Positions 23,115-52,644 of a stretch of DNA of 64,000 nucleotides are shown piece after piece. The notes beneath the pieces were generated by a model. It saw only the letters and a program-made list of their open reading frames with translations, was not told the origin of the DNA and made no database searches. The stretch is from Escherichia coli (GTDB taxonomy: Bacteria; Pseudomonadota; Gammaproteobacteria; Enterobacterales; Enterobacteriaceae), in the NCBI RefSeq assembly GCF_044324875.1, contig NZ_CP172185.1. One strand, written 5' to 3'. Each line of letters opens with the position of its first letter. The stretch's first letter is position 1. The translations under genes were made by a program, and so were the position numbers.

Positions 23115-23305
23115 GATTTCCTGCATTTCTTTTGTAGGCCGGATAAGGCATTCACGCCACATCCGGCGCTGTTTGCCTGATGCGACGCTTGCGCGTCTTA
23201 TCAGGCCTACGATTTCTGCATTTCTTTTGTAGGCCGGATAAGGCGTTCACGCCGCATCCGGCACTGGTTGCCTGATGCGACGCTTGTGCGTCTTATCAGG
23301 CCTGG
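23115..23305. repeat. BIME (REP pair) unit tandemly duplicated, two copies of about 96 bp, in the sdhB-sucA intergenic region
   Basis: Unit gatttc(c)tgcatttcttttgtaggccggataaggc.ttcacgcc.catccggc...gcctgatgcgacgcttg.gcgtcttatcaggcct occurs twice head-to-tail (23115..23210 and 23211..23305) with a few substitutions. Confidence 0.8.
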
Positions 23306-38979: not shown

Positions 38980-40644
<1,665 letters not shown>

Positions 40645-40685
40645 CAGGCCAGCACCATGCCTGATAAAACGCTCGCTGCGTTTTA

Positions 40686-42104
40686 TCAGGCTCCTTTCCT
40701 CGCTTCTTCGTACGCTGCCAGCGTTCGCAGCCTTGCCTCTTTATGATCAACTATCGGTTGCGGATAATCCAGCGTCACACCTGATTTATCTGCCCACTTC
40801 CACGGCTCATGCACCACTTTCCCTGGCACATCGCGCAGTTCCGGTAGCCACTGGCGGATAAACTCGCCTTCGCGGTCAAATTTCTCGCCCTGGGTTGTCG
40901 GGTTAAAAATACGAAAATACGGCGCTGCATCGGTTCCGGTTGAAGCGGCCCACTGCCAGCCACCGTTATTAGCTGCCAAATCACCATCAATCAGCTGCGA
41001 CATGAAATATCGCTCGCCTTCGCGCCAGTCGATCAACAAATCTTTCACCAGAAAACTGGCTGTAATCATCCGTAGCCTGTTATGCATCCAGCCAGTGCTG
41101 TTAAGCTGACGCATGGCAGCATCGACAATCGGGTATCCCGTTTTGCCTTCCTGCCAGGCCTGTAAATGTGCGGGATTGCTCTGCCACTGCACACGATCCG
41201 TCCAGGCAATAAACGGACAATGTTTACACAACGAGGGGTAATACGTCATCAGATGACGGTAGAACTCGCGCCAGATCAGCTCACTAAGCCAGACACTACC
41301 GGCCCCACCGTCCAGCGCCTGCGGCTGTTCCGCCAACAAGCGATGCAAACACTGGCGAGGCGATAACCCGCCCGTTGCCAGGCTGGCGGACAAACGACTG
41401 GTGCCTTCCACTGCCGGAAAATCTCGTTGTTGCTCATATTCTCCGGCACCGTTCTGGCAAAACTGGCGTAATTGCGCAATCGCAGCTTTTTCTTCCACCG
41501 GGAAATGCGCAGTATCGAAAGGCTGACGAGGATAATTCAGCGTAATGGATGGCGCGGGAGCTATCGATCCGCTACTACGTACTTTTGGCGCAGCGACGCA
41601 CTCCGGCATCCCTTCTCGCAGCCGTTTCAGCCAGGCGTTTTTAAATGGCGTAAAAACTTTGTACATCTCATGATTGCCAGTCATCACCGCCCCCGGCGGC
41701 AGGATCACGCTGTCATCAAATCCTTCACACACCACGTTACGCAGCGTTCTCTCAACCTGCACATCCCGCGCCCGCTCATTCACCTCATACTGATAGTTAT
41801 AAAAAAGATGAGTAACGCGGTTTTCCGCGCACACCTGATTAACTGTTTCGACACTGGCGGCAAAGTCATCCACTTCACGGAACAATAAAGGAATACCTTT
41901 TTCTGCCAGTGCTGTTTGTAGCCCGTTCAGTTGCGCATTGATAAATTCAGCCTGACGCGGCGACATATTATGCGCTGCCCACTGGCGCGGTGTGGCTATA
42001 TACAGCGCCAGCACGCGTGCAGACGAATTGCGGCAGGCGGCAGCCAGTGCGAGATTATCGTGCAGACGTAAATCCTGGCGAAACCAGACCAGATGGGTAG
42101 TCAT
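40686..42104 (-). CDS. phr: deoxyribodipyrimidine photolyase
   Basis: MTTHLVWFRQDLRLHDNLALAAACRNSSARVLALYIATP...; start set at MTTHL, overlapping the ybgA stop (ATGA). Confidence 0.93.
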   Translation of the reverse strand: MTTHLVWFRQDLRLHDNLALAAACRNSSARVLALYIATPRQWAAHNMSPRQAEFINAQLNGLQTALAEKGIPLLFREVDDFAASVETVNQVCAENRVTHLFYNYQYEVNERARDVQVERTLRNVVCEGFDDSVILPPGAVMTGNHEMYKVFTPFKNAWLKRLREGMPECVAAPKVRSSGSIAPAPSITLNYPRQPFDTAHFPVEEKAAIAQLRQFCQNGAGEYEQQRDFPAVEGTSRLSASLATGGLSPRQCLHRLLAEQPQALDGGAGSVWLSELIWREFYRHLMTYYPSLCKHCPFIAWTDRVQWQSNPAHLQAWQEGKTGYPIVDAAMRQLNSTGWMHNRLRMITASFLVKDLLIDWREGERYFMSQLIDGDLAANNGGWQWAASTGTDAAPYFRIFNPTTQGEKFDREGEFIRQWLPELRDVPGKVVHEPWKWADKSGVTLDYPQPIVDHKEARLRTLAAYEEARKGA

Positions 42105-42610
42105 AAAACTCCTGCATGGCGCAAGTGAATAATACGCGGCCAAAGTTCGAAATAACGCTGCCCTGAAAGCCAGGCGTCAGGATAAAGCGCCATATAGTGT
42201 TTGATACGCATCAGCGGCGCAAGAAGCGGTTGCTCGCCACGGCGATAACTGTCGATAAGCGCCGCCAGCTGCTGGCGTTCTGTGGAATCAATATGTGGGC
42301 GAAAATATCCCTGAACGTGCATCAAAACGTTAGTATGATCACGCCGGTTGGCAGGGTGAGAAAGCAAAACAATTACGCGTTGGCGGTACTGGTTGTAATA
42401 GTCATCCAGATTTTGCCACCGGTGAATATCTGCCACGAACGGGCCAAGTTTGCGGTACTCGGGCTGGGAATGGGCCAGAAAGACGAGTTTATAGCGGCTG
42501 TGATAATCGTTGAGTGCCCCGCGCGTTAAGCCATGTTCTTTCAGTCGATGTAACTCGTGGAGAGCGAAGATACGGATTAGGGTGCTTTCATCAAATCGTT
42601 GCTGATTCAT
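42101..42610 (-). CDS. ybgA: DUF1722-family protein, cotranscribed with phr
   Basis: 169-aa ORF directly upstream of and overlapping phr, as in K-12. Confidence 0.85.
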   Translation of the reverse strand: MNQQRFDESTLIRIFALHELHRLKEHGLTRGALNDYHSRYKLVFLAHSQPEYRKLGPFVADIHRWQNLDDYYNQYRQRVIVLLSHPANRRDHTNVLMHVQGYFRPHIDSTERQQLAALIDSYRRGEQPLLAPLMRIKHYMALYPDAWLSGQRYFELWPRIIHLRHAGVL

Positions 42611-42694
42611 TACTGCTCCTGAACGGTTTACAGGAGTAAGTGTAGACGGCAGTATTGAAAAAACGAAACGAATAAATGAGATCGGTAAAGAAAT

Positions 42695-43102
42695 TCAATA
42701 ACTCATAATAAATTTCATGGTGGCGATAAATAGTTTCTTTTCTTCATCACTCATGGTAGAAGCGTTTAACATGTTGCCATAAAATTTACTGATGATATTT
42801 TTTAATTGCAGCAAATGCAAAGGAGAAAAATAGTCACTCCCGATGAGATTACTCAATACCAGCAATAATTCTCCATTATATAAATAACCTACCATAAGAT
42901 TAATCTCTATCATCTCAATTGCTTTTTGTACAGCAAGCGCTGGTAAGATATTCTGACGAAGCATTTTGGCAATATCATTTTCATCCAGTTCATCCGGTGT
43001 TTTATCCAATAAAGAGTTATACCAGTTTATTAAACCACTTTTGAAAGCGAATGAATCATATTGCAGGTGATAAATCTGTTTTAGGGTTTCTTTATTTTTC
43101 AT
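42695..43102 (-). CDS. hypothetical small protein, 135 aa, low-GC
   Basis: ORF in an AT-rich block; 12-bp gap from the upstream 94-aa ORF; no recognisable family. Confidence 0.45.
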   Translation of the reverse strand: MKNKETLKQIYHLQYDSFAFKSGLINWYNSLLDKTPDELDENDIAKMLRQNILPALAVQKAIEMIEINLMVGYLYNGELLLVLSNLIGSDYFSPLHLLQLKNIISKFYGNMLNASTMSDEEKKLFIATMKFIMSY

Positions 43103-43114
43103 TTTATAATGTCT

Positions 43115-43399
43115 TTATTTGCTATGATTTTTCTGATTTAATTCTATATCATTTAAAGCATTTTCAAGCCAATCATCCATGTTCTTAATTTTAGCCCGCT
43201 CATACAAATCATGCACAACATCTTCATAACGCCGTCCATCATTGACCATACAATTAGCTGTATGAGGCAGAACATGTATAAAATCAGACAATATAAAACA
43301 AGCCTTTGCATTTCCAGAGTTAGCTGCAGTTCTGATATCAATCAAGCCTCTGGCAATTAATTTAAGAATAACACTAACATCTTGCATTTTAATTTCCAT
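43115..43399 (-). CDS. hypothetical small protein, 94 aa, low-GC
   Basis: ORF in an AT-rich block, tandem with its neighbours. Confidence 0.4.
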   Translation of the reverse strand: MEIKMQDVSVILKLIARGLIDIRTAANSGNAKACFILSDFIHVLPHTANCMVNDGRRYEDVVHDLYERAKIKNMDDWLENALNDIELNQKNHSK

Positions 43400-43481
43400 A
43401 TCATCCAGTTAAATTTTAGTCGTAAATCGTCTATCTAAAAAAGATGAAATTAACATTTATAAATTTATTACAATATAAAAA

Positions 43482-43835
43482 TCAAAAATATACATCATCA
43501 GCTTCTACTGAAAACTCCATGGCTCCTAAGGCACCTAAATCAATACTAAATATGGTATCACTTTCCTTAGCACTCCCAACATAGATAAAATAGCCTAAAT
43601 CCCCATCCTGACCTATCAAAAAATAGTCAGGCTCCACTCGTTGAATATCATATGTTTCATTTCTTTCAATAAGATCAGAATAGTTATACAGATATAATAT
43701 TTCATGCTTCTTATTAGTTATTTCATAGGCCTCACTATCTTTAATTTCTTCTATTAAGAAACGTTTATACACTGGAGGAAATTTGATTGACATGTCAAAT
43801 TCAATTTTATTTATATATTCTATGATTTTATTCAT
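43482..43835 (-). CDS. hypothetical small protein, 117 aa; possible SUKH/Smi1-Knr4-like immunity protein
   Basis: FPPVYKRFLIEEI... near the N-terminus and ...FLIGQDGDLGYFIYVG... later resemble SUKH-family motifs by eye; low-GC. Needs a profile search. Confidence 0.4.
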   Translation of the reverse strand: MNKIIEYINKIEFDMSIKFPPVYKRFLIEEIKDSEAYEITNKKHEILYLYNYSDLIERNETYDIQRVEPDYFLIGQDGDLGYFIYVGSAKESDTIFSIDLGALGAMEFSVEADDVYF

Positions 43836-44074
43836 GTTAAGAATACCTGAGCGGTTAATTATCGGTTATTGTGATGAATATATATTCGCTTTTAATTTTC
43901 AATAACTCATCACGGAAATACATATTGCTTTGTAGGCAAGCGCTAATAATACTTTATGAACCTGACTTCCGCCAGATATTCAACCTAAATATTCATGACG
44001 CAGTAATGTTTTAGAAAGCCACTAACTGCCCAGATAGTGCATCATCTACTACATTGGCGATTATACTCTAAATA

Positions 44075-44272
44075 ATTCAAGTTGCAGGAAGGCGACAAGC
44101 GAGTGACAAATTCGTCAGGAACGAATTTGCCCAGTCGCAGGCTGACCTTCGGTGAGAGACATGGATGTCTCTCATTAATCCCCAGGAGCTTACATAAGTA
44201 AGTGACTGGGGTGAACGAACGCAGTCGCAGCACATGCAACTTGAAGTATGACGAGTATATAAAAAACCCCTG
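44075..44272. repeat. ERIC (IRU) element, long form
   Basis: Contains ...aatccccaggagcttacataagtaagtgactggggtgaacg..., the central inverted repeat from which the standard ERIC1R/ERIC2 primers derive, flanked by further hairpins (gagagacatggatgtctctc, caaattcgtcaggaacgaatttg). Confidence 0.75.
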
Positions 44273-44302
44273 ATTCCAGTTCCTTGTGCTGCGATCCTAA
44301 CC

Positions 44303-44337
44303 AAAAAAAAACCGCCAGCGTTTCCGCTGGCGGTTTT
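44303..44337. terminator. bidirectional intrinsic terminator downstream of ybfA
   Basis: A9-ccgccagcg-tttc-cgctggcgg-TTTT: perfect 9-bp stem flanked by A-run and T-run. Confidence 0.7.
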
Positions 44338-44359
44338 CAATGTATTCAGAACTCAGCAA

Positions 44360-44566
44360 TCAGTAAAAATCACCGGTTGCCTTTTCGGCCTGATCCATCC
44401 AAACCGGTTTATCGCTGGTTTTCGACCAGACGCGATGCAGATAGCTGTAAAAGCGGGCGCGGTCTTTCCAGAAAAGCATGAAAGGCAGCGCCAGAACGCC
44501 CACTGCAACCGCATAAGTACGGCGTAAAAAGATAAGCCATGCAGGATATTCTCTGTAGAGTTCCAT
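44360..44566 (-). CDS. ybfA: DUF2517-family small protein
   Basis: 68-aa [71 protein letters not shown]; K-12 position next to kdpF. Confidence 0.85.
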
Positions 44567-44775
44567 ACTTTTCTCCCCCTTTTGTATCTACCCGGTGAAT
44601 GGCACCGGAAAAATGAATTCGTTTATCTGATGAAAATAGTACCGCCTTTTGTGTAATTTTACTACTCATCCGACCACTTATTTTTGCTTATTGATGGTTT
44701 ATTTACATTCACCGTGTAATTAAGTTACACAAAGGTTAAATTAATACTAAACATTAGTTAAATCATGGCTTTTGC

Positions 44776-44800
44776 CATTTTTATACTTTTTTTACACCCC
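44776..44800 (+). promoter_or_regulatory. KdpE response-regulator binding site of the kdpFABC promoter
   Basis: catttttatactttttttacaccccgcc about 80-100 bp upstream of the kdpF start matches the remembered KdpE box. Confidence 0.6.
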
Positions 44801-44878
44801 GCCCGCAGATTTTTGCGAAATCTTTGCAGCCAGAATTCTACCCTTCCGGTATCACTTTTAGGCCACTGGAGGTGCACT

Positions 44879-44968
44879 GTGAGTGCAGGCGTGATAGCCG
44901 GCGTGTTGCTGGTGTTTTTATTACTGGGTTATCTGGTTTATGCCCTGATCAATGCGGAGGCGTTCTGA
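44879..44968 (+). CDS. kdpF: K+-transporting ATPase small subunit F
   Basis: Translates (V/M)[28 protein letters not shown]; GGAGG 6 nt upstream; apparent GTG start; stop overlaps the kdpA ATG. Confidence 0.8.
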
Positions 44969-46641
44969 TGGCTGCGCAAGGGTTCTTACTGATCGCCACG
45001 TTTTTACTGGTGTTAATGGTGCTGGCACGTCCTTTAGGCAGCGGGCTGGCGCGGCTGATTAATGACATACCTCTTCCCGGTACAGCGGGCGTTGAACGTA
45101 TACTCTTTCGTTTACCTGGCGTCTCTGACCATGAGATGAACTGGAAGCAGTATCTCTGTGCCATTCTCGGCCTGAACATGCTGGGGCTGGCGGTGCTGTT
45201 TTTTATGTTGCTCGGTCAGCACTATCTGCCGCTTAATCCACAGCAGTTGCCGGGGCTGTCGTGGGATCTGGCGCTGAATACTGCCGTCAGCTTTGTCACC
45301 AATACCAACTGGCAATCTTACAGCGGTGAAACTACGTTGAGCTATTTCAGCCAGATGGCTGGCTTAACGGTGCAAAACTTTCTTTCTGCCGCCAGCGGGA
45401 TTGCGGTGATTTTTGCCCTCATCCGTGCGTTTACCCGCCAGAGCATGAGCACACTCGGGAATGCCTGGGTCGATCTGCTACGCATCACGTTATGGGTGCT
45501 AGTCCCTGTGGCGTTGTTGATCGCACTGTTTTTTATTCAACAAGGTGCGCTGCAAAACTTTCTGCCCTATCAGGCGGTGAATACCGTTGAAGGAGCGAAA
45601 CAGCTGTTACCAATGGGTCCGGTGGCTTCTCAGGAAGCGATCAAGATGCTCGGCACTAACGGCGGTGGCTTCTTTAATGCCAACTCGTCGCATCCGTTTG
45701 AAAACCCAACCGCACTGACCAACTTCGTGCAAATGCTGGCGATCTTCTTGATCCCAACAGCGCTGTGCTTTGCCTTTGGTGAAGTGGCGGGCGATCGTCG
45801 TCAGGGGCGCATGTTGCTGTGGGCGATGTCAGTGATTTTTGTCATCTGCGCAGGCGTGGTGATGTGGGCAGAAGTTCAGGGTAATCCTCATCTGCTGGCG
45901 CTGGGCGCGGACAGCAGCATCAATATGGAAGGTAAAGAGAGCCGTTTCGGCGTGCTGGTCAGTAGCCTGTTTGCGGTCGTGACTACGGCGGCTTCCTGCG
46001 GCGCGGTGATTGCGATGCATGATTCGTTTACCGCCCCCGGTGGCATGGTGCCGATGTGGCTGATGCAAATTGGTGAAGTGGTATTCGGCGGTGTCGGTTC
46101 TGGTCTTTACGGCATGATGCTGTTTGTCCTGCTGGCGGTGTTTATTGCCGGGCTGATGATTGGTCGTACACCGGAATATCTGGGTAAAAAAATCGACGTA
46201 CGCGAGATGAAACTGACCGCACTGGCGATTCTGGTCACCCCGACGCTGGTGCTGATGGGCGCGGCGCTGGCGATGATGACCGACGCCGGACGTAGCGCCA
46301 TGCTCAACCCGGGCCCGCATGGTTTTAGCGAAGTGCTGTACGCCGTGTCATCCGCCGCTAACAACAACGGCAGCGCCTTTGCCGGATTAAGCGCCAACTC
46401 CCCATTCTGGAACTGTTTGCTGGCGTTCTGCATGTTTGTTGGTCGCTTCGGGGTGATTATTCCGGTGATGGCAATTGCTGGTTCGCTGGTGAGTAAAAAG
46501 AGCCAACCCGCCAGCTCCGGCACACTGCCTACGCACGGCCCGCTGTTTGTTGGCCTGTTAATCGGCACCGTGTTGCTGGTTGGCGCACTGACCTTTATCC
46601 CTGCCCTGGCGCTTGGTCCGGTGGCGGAATATCTCTCCTGA
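44968..46641 (+). CDS. kdpA: K+-transporting ATPase subunit A
   Basis: [36 protein letters not shown]...; 557 aa from the chosen start. Confidence 0.95.
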
Positions 46642-46663
46642 TGATATTGAGTGAGCACTGAAT

Positions 46664-48712
46664 ATGAGTCGTAAACAACTGGCGCTATTCGAACCAACAC
46701 TTGTCGTTCAGGCGCTGAAAGAAGCGGTGAAAAAATTAAACCCGCAGGCGCAATGGCGCAATCCGGTGATGTTTATCGTCTGGATCGGCAGTCTGCTGAC
46801 CACCTTTATTAGCATCGCAATGGCAAGCGGTGCGATGCCTGGCAATGTGCTGTTTAGCGCGGCAATCAGCGGCTGGCTGTGGGTCACCGTACTGTTCGCT
46901 AATTTCGCCGAGGCGCTGGCAGAAGGCCGCAGTAAAGCGCAGGCCAACAGTCTGAAAGGGGTGAAAAAAACTGCCTTTGCCCGCAAGCTGCGTGAGCCGA
47001 AATATGGCGCTGCGGCGGACAAAGTTCCCGCCGATCAACTGCGTAAAGGCGATATCGTACTGGTAGAAGCTGGCGATATTATCCCCTGCGATGGTGAAGT
47101 CATTGAAGGGGGTGCATCGGTCGATGAAAGCGCCATCACCGGGGAATCGGCACCGGTGATCCGTGAATCCGGCGGCGATTTTGCCTCCGTCACTGGCGGC
47201 ACGCGTATTCTTTCTGACTGGCTGGTGATTGAGTGCAGCGTTAACCCCGGCGAGACATTTCTGGATCGGATGATCGCGATGGTGGAAGGTGCGCAGCGAC
47301 GTAAAACGCCGAACGAGATTGCCCTGACCATCCTGCTGATTGCCCTGACTATCGTCTTTTTACTGGCAACCGCCACGCTGTGGCCGTTTTCCGCGTGGGG
47401 CGGTAATGCAGTCAGTGTAACGGTACTGGTGGCGCTGCTGGTCTGTCTGATCCCAACCACTATTGGCGGCCTGTTGTCAGCGATCGGCGTCGCCGGGATG
47501 AGTCGGATGCTGGGCGCGAATGTGATTGCCACCAGCGGACGTGCAGTTGAAGCGGCAGGTGACGTTGACGTTCTGCTACTGGATAAAACCGGCACCATCA
47601 CACTCGGTAACCGTCAGGCGTCGGAGTTTATCCCCGCGCAGGGCGTGGATGAAAAAATGCTGGCTGACGCCGCACAACTGGCTTCGCTGGCTGATGAAAC
47701 GCCGGAAGGCCGCAGTATTGTGATCCTCGCCAAGCAGCGTTTTAACCTGCGCGAGCGCGATGTGCAGTCGCTCCATGCCACCTTTGTACCGTTTACTGCG
47801 CAAAGCCGGATGAGCGGGATCAACATCGACAACCGCATGATCCGTAAAGGTTCTGTCGATGCCATTCGCCGCCATGTTGAGGCTAATGGTGGTCACTTCC
47901 CAGCCGATGTTGATCAAAAAGTCGATCAGGTTGCGCGTCAGGGAGCCACGCCGCTTGTAGTAGTAGAAGGCTCCCATGTGCTTGGCGTTATTGCGCTGAA
48001 AGATATCGTCAAAGGCGGTATTAAAGAGCGCTTCGCGCAGTTGCGTAAAATGGGCATTAAAACGGTGATGATTACCGGTGATAACCGTCTGACTGCCGCC
48101 GCGATAGCTGCGGAAGCGGGTGTCGATGATTTTCTCGCCGAAGCGACACCGGAGGCCAAGCTGGCATTGATTCGTCAGTATCAGGCGGAAGGCCGTTTGG
48201 TGGCGATGACCGGCGATGGCACCAACGATGCTCCGGCGCTGGCGCAGGCAGATGTCGCGGTGGCGATGAACTCTGGTACTCAGGCGGCGAAAGAAGCGGG
48301 CAATATGGTGGATCTCGACTCTAACCCGACCAAGTTGATCGAGGTGGTGCATATTGGCAAACAGATGCTGATGACCCGTGGCTCGCTGACCACCTTCAGC
48401 ATTGCCAACGATGTGGCGAAATACTTCGCCATTATTCCGGCGGCGTTCGCGGCAACGTATCCGCAGTTAAATGCGCTGAACATCATGCGCCTGCATTCGC
48501 CCGACTCCGCCATTCTCAGTGCGGTCATTTTCAACGCCTTGATTATCGTCTTTTTGATTCCCCTGGCGTTAAAAGGCGTGAGTTATAAACCGTTTACCGC
48601 TTCTGCCATGTTGCGCCGTAACTTATGGATTTACGGTCTGGGTGGGCTGCTGGTGCCGTTTATTGGTATCAAAGTCATTGATTTACTGCTGACCGTTTGC
48701 GGTCTGGTGTGA
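46664..48712 (+). CDS. kdpB: K+-transporting ATPase subunit B (P-type ATPase)
   Basis: 682-aa ORF with DKTGT phosphorylation motif ([13 protein letters not shown]) and [11 protein letters not shown] motif. Confidence 0.95.
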
Positions 48713-48720
48713 GGTTTACC

Positions 48721-49293
48721 ATGAGTGGATTACGTCCGGCATTATCAACATTTATCTTTCTGTTATTGATTACTGGCGGCGTTTACCCGCTGCTGACCAC
48801 CGCGCTGGGGCAATGGTGGTTTCCCTGGCAGGCCAACGGTTCGTTGATTCGTGAAGGTGATACGGTGCGCGGTTCAGCATTAATCGGGCAGAATTTTACC
48901 GGCAACGGCTATTTTCATGGTCGCCCGTCGGCAACGGCAGAAATACCCTATAATCCACAGGCTTCTGGCGGGAGCAATCTGGCGGTCAGTAACCCTGAGC
49001 TGGATAAACTAATAGCCGCACGCGTTGCTGCATTACGGGCCGCTAACCCGGATGTCAGCGCGAACGTTCCGGTTGAACTGGTGACGGCATCGGCAAGCGG
49101 ACTGGACAATAACATCACCCCGCAAGCGGCAGCCTGGCAGATCCCACGCGTGGCGAAAGCGCGTAATCTCAGCGTTGAACAGCTCACGCAACTGATCGCA
49201 AAATACAGCCAACAACCGCTGGTGAAATATATCGGCCAGCCGGTCGTCAACATTGTCGAACTCAATCTGGCGCTGGATAAACTTGATGAATAA
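48721..49293 (+). CDS. kdpC: K+-transporting ATPase subunit C
   Basis: [40 protein letters not shown]...; 190 aa. Confidence 0.92.
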
Positions 49294-51970
49294 CGAACCC
49301 TTACGTCCCGACCCCGATCGTCTGCTGGAACAAACTGCCGCGCCGCATCGGGGGAAGCTGAAAGTTTTCTTCGGTGCCTGTGCGGGCGTCGGAAAGACCT
49401 GGGCGATGCTGGCAGAAGCCCAGCGACTGCGGGCGCAAGGGCTGGATATTGTGGTTGGCGTGGTTGAAACCCACGGGCGGAAAGATACCGCCGCAATGCT
49501 GGAAGGGCTGGCTGTTCTGCCGCCCAAACGCCAGGCGTACCGTGGGCGGCATATCAGCGAGTTTGATCTCGATGCCGCCCTCGCCCGCCGTCCGGCGCTG
49601 ATCTTAATGGACGAACTGGCGCACAGTAATGCGCCAGGTTCTCGTCATCCTAAACGCTGGCAGGACATCGAAGAGCTGCTGGAAGCTGGCATTGATGTTT
49701 TCACAACCGTCAACGTTCAGCATCTGGAAAGTCTGAATGATGTGGTCAGCGGCGTCACCGGAATTCAGGTACGGGAAACCGTGCCCGATCCTTTTTTCGA
49801 TGCCGCCGACGACGTGGTGCTGGTGGACTTGCCCCCGGACGATCTGCGTCAACGGCTGAAAGAAGGTAAAGTCTATATTGCCGGGCAGGCGGAACGCGCC
49901 ATTGAACATTTTTTTCGTAAAGGTAATCTGATCGCCCTGCGCGAACTGGCACTGCGCCGTACTGCCGATCGCGTTGATGAGCAAATGCGCGCCTGGCGGG
50001 GGCATCCTGGCGAAGAGAAAGTCTGGCACACGCGCGACGCGATCCTTTTATGCATCGGGCATAACACCGGCAGCGAAAAACTGGTCCGCGCGGCGGCGCG
50101 GCTGGCGTCACGGCTGGGTAGCGTCTGGCACGCTGTGTATGTTGAAACCCCTACCCTGCACCGCTTACCGGAGAAAAAACGTCGGGCAATTCTCAGCGCC
50201 TTACGTCTGGCACAGGAGCTGGGCGCAGAGACGGCAACACTTTCTGATCCAGCGGAAGAGAAAGCGGTAGTGCGTTATGCCCGTGAACATAATCTCGGCA
50301 AGATTATTCTCGGTCGCCCGGCCTCGCGCCGCTGGTGGCGTCGGGAAACGTTTGCTGACCGACTGGCGCGAATCGCCCCCGATCTCGATCAGGTGCTGGT
50401 CGCGCTTGATGAACCACCCGCCCGCACGATAAACAACGCGCCGGATAGCCGCTCTTTTAAAGACAAGTGGCGGGTACAGATTCAGGGATGCGTGGTTGCC
50501 GCCGCGTTATGCGCCGTTATCACCTTAATTGCCATGCAGTGGCTGATGGCGTTTGATGCCGCCAACCTGGTGATGCTGTATCTGCTTGGCGTGGTGGTGG
50601 TGGCACTATTTTATGGACGCTGGCCTTCGGTGGTTGCCACCGTTATTAATGTGGTGAGTTTCGATCTCTTTTTTATCGCCCCACGCGGCACGCTCGCCGT
50701 CTCTGATGTGCAATATCTGTTGACCTTCACGGTGATGTTAACCGTCGGGCTGGTGATCGGGAACCTTACTGCTGGCGTGCGTTATCAGGCGCGGGTAGCC
50801 CGTTACCGCGAACAACGTACACGGCACTTATATGAAATGTCGAAAGCTCTGGCGGTGGGCCGCAGTCTGCAGGACATCGCCGCCACCAGCGAACAATTTA
50901 TTGCCTCCACGTTTCATGCCCGCAGTCAGGTGCTGTTACCCGATGACAACGGTAAATTGCAGCCGTTAACACATCCGCAAGGAATGACGCCGTGGGACGA
51001 TGCCATCGCGCAGTGGAGTTTTGATAAAGGCCTGCCTGCGGGCGCGGGCACCGACACGTTACCCGGTGTACCGTACCAGATTTTGCCGCTAAAAAGCGGC
51101 GAGAAAACCTACGGGCTGGTGGTGGTGGAACCGGGGAATCTGCGCCAGTTGATGATCCCGGAACAGCAACGCCTGCTGGAGACGTTTACGCTGTTAGTCG
51201 CCAATGCCCTTGAGCGGCTGACACTGACCGCCAGCGAAGAACAGGCGCGGATGGCAAGCGAACGAGAACAGATCCGCAACGCCCTGCTGGCGGCGCTTTC
51301 GCATGATTTACGCACTCCGCTTACGGTGCTGTTCGGTCAGGCAGAAATCTTAACGCTCGATCTGGCAAGCGAAGGATCGCCTCACGCCCGCCAGGCCAGC
51401 GAGATTCGCCAGCATGTGCTGAACACGACCCGACTGGTGAATAATCTACTGGATATGGCGCGAATTCAGTCCGGCGGCTTTAATTTGAAGAAAGAGTGGT
51501 TAACGCTGGAAGAAGTGGTCGGCAGCGCGCTGCAAATGCTGGAACCGGGTTTATCGTCGCCCATCAATCTTTCTCTGCCAGAACCGCTGACCTTAATCCA
51601 CGTTGACGGGCCGCTCTTTGAACGGGTGCTGATTAATCTGCTGGAGAACGCGGTGAAATACGCGGGGGCGCAGGCCGAAATTGGTATCGATGCCCACGTT
51701 GAGGGCGAGAAGCTACAACTGGATGTCTGGGATAACGGCCCCGGTCTTCCGCCAGGCCAGGAGCAGACGATATTTGATAAGTTTGCTCGCGGGAATAAAG
51801 AGTCGGCGGTACCGGGTGTCGGGCTTGGGCTGGCAATTTGTCGGGCGATTGTGGATGTACACGGCGGCACCATTACCGCGTTCAACCGACCGGAAGGTGG
51901 TGCCTGTTTTCGTGTTACACTTCCCCAGCAAACTGCCCCTGAACTTGAAGAATTTCATGAGGATATGTGA
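49286..51970 (+). CDS. kdpD: sensor histidine kinase KdpD
   Basis: [42 protein letters not shown]...; 894 aa; overlaps the kdpC end. Confidence 0.95.
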
Positions 51971-52644
51971 CAAACGTTCTGATTGTTGAAGATGAACAGG
52001 CTATTCGTCGCTTTCTGCGCACGGCGCTGGAGGGCGACGGTATGCGCGTCTTTGAGGCCGAAACGCTGCAACGCGGCTTGCTGGAAGCGGCAACCCGTAA
52101 GCCAGATTTGATTATTCTCGATCTCGGCCTGCCCGATGGTGATGGGATTGAGTTTATCCGCGACCTGCGCCAGTGGAGCGCGGTGCCGGTGATTGTGCTT
52201 TCCGCACGTAGCGAAGAGAGCGATAAAATCGCCGCGCTGGATGCCGGAGCGGATGATTACCTGAGTAAGCCATTTGGTATTGGCGAATTGCAGGCCCGTC
52301 TGCGCGTCGCTTTACGCCGCCACTCCGCCACCACCGCGCCCGATCCGCTGGTGAAATTTTCCGATGTTACCGTCGATTTAGCGGCTCGTGTGATCCATCG
52401 CGGTGACGAAGAGGTGCATCTCACCCCGATTGAGTTCCGCCTGCTGGCGGTGCTACTTAACAATGCCGGAAAAGTACTCACCCAGCGCCAGTTACTCAAT
52501 CAGGTGTGGGGACCAAACGCGGTCGAACACAGCCACTATTTGCGTATTTATATGGGGCATCTGCGACAAAAACTGGAACAGGATCCCGCCCGCCCACGCC
52601 ATTTCATTACTGAAACCGGTATTGGGTATCGGTTTATGCTTTAG
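51967..52644 (+). CDS. kdpE: response regulator KdpE (OmpR family)
   Basis: 225-aa ORF with receiver (VLIVEDEQAIRRFL...DLGLPDGDG) and winged-helix domains; overlaps the kdpD stop. Confidence 0.95.
   Translation: MTNVLIVEDEQAIRRFLRTALEGDGMRVFEAETLQRGLLEAATRKPDLIILDLGLPDGDGIEFIRDLRQWSAVPVIVLSARSEESDKIAALDAGADDYLSKPFGIGELQARLRVALRRHSATTAPDPLVKFSDVTVDLAARVIHRGDEEVHLTPIEFRLLAVLLNNAGKVLTQRQLLNQVWGPNAVEHSHYLRIYMGHLRQKLEQDPARPRHFITETGIGYRFML

Follow-up and report, generated by a model that had tools for sequence, protein, structure and literature searches.

Does kdpF of Escherichia coli begin with GTG and, if so, is this a peculiarity of one strain or the ordinary start of the gene? The question is raised by a 29-codon reading frame lying directly 5' of kdpA in a 64,000-nucleotide stretch of E. 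coli DNA (the window; all positions below refer to it). The explanation that we favour, and in which as a whole we have high confidence, is that kdpF is an ordinary first cistron of the kdpFABC operon, with GTG as its native and ancestral start.

Identity of the kdpF reading frame

The 29-residue peptide scored 74.3 bits against the NCBIfam KdpF equivalog NF011332 (cutoff 56), 31.5 bits against TIGR02115 (cutoff 26.85) and 27.8 bits against Pfam PF09604 (cutoff 21.2). At 28 of 29 residues it is identical to KdpF as resolved in KdpFABC structures (6HRA, 5MRW and others; chains 6hra_D and 5mrw_D), the sole mismatch being Ala7 here and Thr7 in the PDB chains. Because the NF011332 score exceeds its cutoff and 28/29 residues match the structurally resolved subunit, the open reading frame is, judged by its sequence, a genuine KdpF and not a chance frame, and the original prediction had named it correctly. 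Read from the sequence, the peptide has an unbroken hydrophobic core, fitting a protein of the single-helix type of ~25-30 residues. KdpF of K-12 is a physical subunit of KdpFABC, seen in structures 6HRA and 5MRW, and stabilises the complex (Gassel et al. 1999, cited by PMC12648545); from the 28/29 identity we infer that the KdpF encoded here would likewise be a stabilising subunit.

The gene is the first cistron of kdpFABC, located directly 5' of kdpA and overlapping it. The gene order ybfA, kdpF, kdpA, kdpB, kdpC, kdpD, kdpE is that annotated in strain A10, which is the closest of the complete E. coli genomes (98.3% identity over 12 kb). The features of the locus are collected in Table 1.

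Table 1. Features of the kdpF locus and their positions in the window.
Feature	Position	Strand	Remark
KdpE-binding half-sites S1 TTTATA (44780-44785) and S2 TTTACA (44791-44796)	44780..44796	+	same as K-12
Inferred kdpFABC 5' UTR, ~32 nt	44847..44878	+	placed by published half-site numbering
Shine-Dalgarno (SD) GGAGGTG of kdpF	44868..44874	+	7-base complement of the 16S rRNA 3' end
GTG initiation codon of kdpF	44879..44881	+	same in K-12, 5,397/5,426 E. coli genomes and 72/74 Enterobacterales
kdpF CDS	44879..44968	+	GTG start, 29 codons, TGA stop at 44966-44968
SD GGAGG of kdpA	44956..44960	+	within kdpF codons 26-28
TGATG, kdpF stop / kdpA start, one-base overlap	44966..44970	+	typical translational-coupling arrangement

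The GTG codon and its Shine-Dalgarno sequence

The original prediction placed a GTG start six nucleotides after a GGAGG, with no usable ATG at the N-terminus, and on each of these points it is borne out. The reference CDS in RefSeq begins at the homologous codon, and the same codon is found in 72/74 species (see below). GGAGG occupies positions 44868-44872, forming the first five bases of the SD sequence GGAGGTG, and is separated from the GTG by the six bases TGCACT (44873-44878); the full SD ends 4 nt before the GTG. No in-frame ATG was found on reading the kdpF ORF through its 29 codons and none occurs in the inferred 5' UTR (~44847-44878), while the ATG at 44765 falls outside the transcript. 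The codon thus shows the attributes of a bona fide GTG start, namely an SD at a suitable distance, no upstream alternative in the inferred transcript and a position conserved across orthologues.

GTG is read by the initiator tRNA as formyl-methionine, and the KdpF peptide would still begin with methionine. Approximately 14% of E. coli genes have a GTG start (bioRxiv 10.1101/063800), and there is a general pattern for a sub-optimal start codon to be accompanied by a strengthened SD (PMC5622118). At kdpF, the perfect 7-base SD would drive initiation, offsetting the weaker GTG codon. In the collection of papers searched, no explicit mention of which codon starts kdpF in E. coli was found, nor any initiation-site profiling or N-terminal mapping of the gene product.

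Conservation of the start across Enterobacterales

A degenerate DNA pattern for an 11-residue KdpF peptide was scanned against one genome per GTDB species, yielding 77 loci. By title these were nearly all from Enterobacterales (Citrobacter, Salmonella, Enterobacter, Kosakonia, Pluralibacter, Siccibacter, Phytobacter, Erwinia, Pantoea, Mixta, Izhakiella and others), and 74 of them had enough flanking sequence for analysis. Such a scan recovers only those kdpF genes that keep the 11-residue peptide, and the sample is consequently limited to close relatives.

The codon 48 bases 5' of the pattern match was GTG in 72/74 species and ATG in the other two, Enterobacter cloacae DSM 26481 and Izhakiella capsodis. 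The seven SD positions (-11 to -5) were each conserved in 72 to 74 of the 74. The four bases of the spacer that follow it were variable, with all four bases represented at -4 and a composition of C34/T31/G7/A2 at -2. Upstream of -12 conservation was poor, entropy being mostly 1.2 to 2.0 bits. From +4 onwards, variability was concentrated at third codon positions, such that codon periodicity starts directly after the GTG. In several species (e.g. L005 and L008 of the set), the GTG is the sole ATG, GTG or TTG able to open the frame. Together, the conservation of GTG and SD on either side of a variable spacer, the onset of codon periodicity and the occurrence of species with a single candidate show, at the level of comparative sequence, that GTG is the actual start of kdpF and is ancestral to the order.

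Is GTG retained to set KdpF output?

The strongest of the competing explanations accepts the GTG as the start and adds that selection has kept it: a weak codon paired with a perfect SD would set the output of KdpF relative to KdpA, B and C, or would make initiation sensitive to conditions such as K+ limitation. We consider this unlikely, although it draws on several features of the alignment. G occupies +1 in 72/74 species while spacer positions -4 and -2 vary freely, and it is better kept than purines at typical synonymous sites (+42, G55/A19; +48, G62/A12; +30, G66/A8); in the same 74-species alignment, all four bases occur at +84. However, the most codon-biased synonymous sites are as well conserved as the start (+69, G72/A2; +33, G74), so +1 is not exceptional, and the 74 species are phylogenetically related, with the counts ignoring their kinship. 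The conservation of +1 therefore hints at selection for GTG, unconvincingly.

Evidence from other sources is similarly divided. The prevailing trend in prokaryotes favours the replacement of GUG by AUG (PMC5622118), and long retention of GUG runs counter to it. In reporters, GUG initiates at 10-100% of the level of AUG (bioRxiv 10.1101/063800), so that the choice of codon can change output. Against this, ATG is evidently viable at kdpF, having arisen at least twice (in E. cloacae DSM 26481 and I. capsodis), and the KdpFABC complex is 1:1:1:1, with no unusual stoichiometry in need of explanation. A more specific form of the proposal, that the sub-optimal GTG and 7-base SD have been selected as a pair across Enterobacterales and might set KdpF against the coupled kdpA or sense the state of K+ starvation, strikes us as improbable.

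Two precedents bear on the question. The start codon of infC is the sensor of the IF3 autoregulatory loop; to our knowledge, no autoregulatory start-codon loop is known or indicated for kdpF. Like kdpF, infC has retained a non-AUG start over evolutionary time, in its case a confirmed AUU (bioRxiv 10.1101/063800), whereas the GTG of kdpF is a common canonical alternative, used by ~14% of E. coli genes, and is not rare. The second precedent is the kdpF of Mycobacterium smegmatis (re-annotated from MSMEG_5391), which resembles the gene in the window in being a small ORF that overlaps the start of kdpA and begins with GTG, a start verified there by in-frame and frame-shifted lacZ fusions (PMC5401905). 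The mycobacterial gene differs in its ~120 nt 5' UTR, its distant lineage, its peptide sequence and its SigF-type promoter. The GTG that the two genes share may be a coincidence, given that GTG starts are common in high-GC genomes.

Promoter, leader and alternative start sites

A second alternative holds that the annotated GTG is a convention and that the true initiation site of kdpF is another codon, be it an in-frame GTG or TTG further downstream or the ATG at 44765. The frame does offer such codons: in-frame GTG/TTG triplets occur at 44891, 44903, 44906 and 44912 (codons 5, 9, 10 and 12), and no in-frame stop intervenes between the ATG at 44765 and the GTG. Across species, the GTG (48 bases upstream of the scan-pattern match) and its SD are conserved; the downstream candidates are not, and were rejected as kdpF starts for that reason. 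KdpF residues 2-8, moreover, are kept at the protein level with synonymous variation, and the PDB chains of KdpF begin MSAGV, an N-terminus that argues against a start elsewhere.

The upstream ATG is addressed by the promoter. S1 and S2 are AT-rich 6-bp direct repeats lying 5 bp apart upstream of the core promoter, as in a KdpE-activated promoter; the half-sites of the kdpFABC promoter were defined in PMC3264566 and a KdpE footprint of -72 to -50 has been reported (Sugiura et al. 1992, as cited in PMC3264566). Numbered from the transcription start, the half-sites occupy -67 to -62 and -56 to -51 (bioRxiv 10.1101/256826). From the numbering of both half-sites, which derives from a promoter derivative, we infer a transcription start near 44847, give or take a few bases. 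With +1 at this position, the leader is ~32 nt long and the ATG at 44765 lies ~80 bases upstream of the transcript. This ATG is 5' of the KdpE sites, and the stretch from there to the SD is poorly conserved. For these reasons the 67-residue ORF that it opens, whose ATG precedes the inferred transcription start as well as the KdpE sites, was rejected as a longer KdpF. Initiation of kdpF at any site other than the GTG at 44879 is, in our estimation, very improbable.

The 67-residue frame (44765-44968) is an artefact of the frame being open: upstream of kdpF it traverses both the core promoter and the sites bound by KdpE. A consensus promoter scan of 44560-45000 gave no sigma-70 match, an absence that fits an activator-dependent promoter.

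RNA structure around the start was also considered. The fold of 84 nt of leader and early coding sequence was no more stable than that of shuffled sequence (z = -0.86), and Rfam gave no RNA family near kdpF. A possible 6-bp hairpin, UGCACU-GUG-AGUGCA (44873-44887), would hold the kdpF GUG in its triloop. It is present in Escherichia and Citrobacter; double changes at two pairs (-3:+6, AT to GC; -4:+7, CG to TA) maintain a shortened stem in the Erwinia group, and in Enterobacter and Kosakonia the stem contains a G-G or A-G mismatch. The hairpin was not accepted as a functional element, the complete stem occurring in only 20/74 species.

kdpF in K-12 and other E. coli genomes

The original prediction had tentatively supposed an ATG start for kdpF in K-12, from which the window would differ. 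The supposition proved mistaken. The CDS aligns base for base with the RefSeq kdpF CDS of K-12 (L001:780-869), and K-12 MG1655 and two other strains are identical to the window from 44717 through the SD, the spacer, the GTG and the first six codons. The RefSeq CDS (WP_001272653.1) starts at the homologous GTG, with L001:780 corresponding to window position 44879. As in the window, the K-12 gene lies between ybfA and kdpA, with the same promoter, SD, spacer and GTG, 29 codons and the TGATG overlap; it differs from the window by the T7A substitution (GCC here and ACC in K-12, at 44897-44899) and by one synonymous change in codon 9. The Ala7 form is itself catalogued in RefSeq (WP_001365534.1); in strains 2012C-4221 and A10 its annotated CDS likewise begins at this GTG.

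Among 5,426 complete E. coli genomes, the locus is present in 5,423. These genomes were searched by megablast with the 30-mer CTGGAGGTGCACTGTGAGTGCAGGCGTGAT, which spans the SD, the GTG and codons 2-6. The GTG is at the centre of the 30-mer, so the 28-base megablast word must span it. The GTG version aligned over 28-30 bases without mismatch in 5,397 of the 5,426 genomes. The 30-mer carrying ATG had no megablast match in the same collection, and no complete E. coli genome showed 99% identity to a 40-mer with ATG in a sensitive-mode search. The 26 genomes that have the locus and differ somewhere in the 30-mer leave it conceivable that a handful combine ATG with a second nearby change.

An ATG-to-GTG change specific to this strain, weakening KdpF synthesis relative to K-12, drew its support from that tentative supposition and from the presence of other differences from K-12 within kdpF (T7A and the synonymous codon 9), and it can be dismissed with near certainty: K-12 itself has GTG, by alignment and RefSeq annotation alike, the GTG context is unmismatched in 5,397/5,426 genomes and the ATG version is found in none, and GTG is the start in 72/74 Enterobacterales species. 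That K-12 and other strains share the GTG is the very finding that the original prediction had named as telling against a difference. The kdpF GTG is an already known reference annotation with nothing strain-specific about it.

The kdpF-kdpA junction

The kdpA ATG at 44968 opens an ORF of 557 codons (44968-46641). RefSeq coordinates for K-12 agree with the one-base overlap, kdpF running from 780 to 869 and kdpA starting at 869. Across the 74 species, the overlap reads TGATG in 71 and TAATG in 3. The overlap, together with the location of the kdpA SD inside the end of kdpF, makes it probable that the two genes are translated in a coupled way: ribosomes ending kdpF would re-initiate at the kdpA ATG, which overlaps the stop, or would be aided in initiating there.

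Within kdpF codons 26-28, GCG and GAG showed no variation at their synonymous positions in any of the 74 species, though the search pattern left these free to vary. Because of this invariance, the comparison indicates that selection acts on a kdpA ribosome-binding site embedded in kdpF.

Surroundings of kdpF in the window

In K-12, an RhsC element adjoins ybfA; it is absent from the window between ybfA and ybgA/phrB (~42695-43835, by alignment to A10, L081:3696-4836). By the same alignment, this interval instead contains three small genes, two of them hypothetical and one annotated as a contact-dependent growth inhibition immunity protein. In some 2,000 complete genomes, a match at a single place covers 80% or more of the 12-kb query, as would be expected if they had the same RhsC-less arrangement.

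The best identity to positions 40000-52000 among the 5,426 complete E. coli genomes was only 98.3% over the 12 kb. A 2.4-kb segment (44301-46700) was ~97% identical to K-12 and ~95% identical to cryptic-clade representatives. By these identities, the lineage from which the window derives, of E. coli or Shigella, appears not to be closely represented among the 5,426 genomes.

Elsewhere in the window, two tandem matches to the Rfam family naRNA4 (RF02564) were found at 23137-23207 and 23232-23302 (77.6 and 86.8 bits); no other Rfam match in the window reached gathering score, and a search for tRNA genes found none.

Discussion

The GTG of kdpF is no strain difference and calls for no new mechanism; as a finding in its own right it matters very little. 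Its use lies in the documentation of four elements, the GTG, the SD GGAGGTG, the embedded kdpA SD and the TGATG overlap, as conserved across the order. On a small scale, the gene neatly illustrates the pairing of a weak start codon with a strong SD, and its 3' end would serve as an example of selection on synonymous sites for the ribosome-binding site of the downstream gene.
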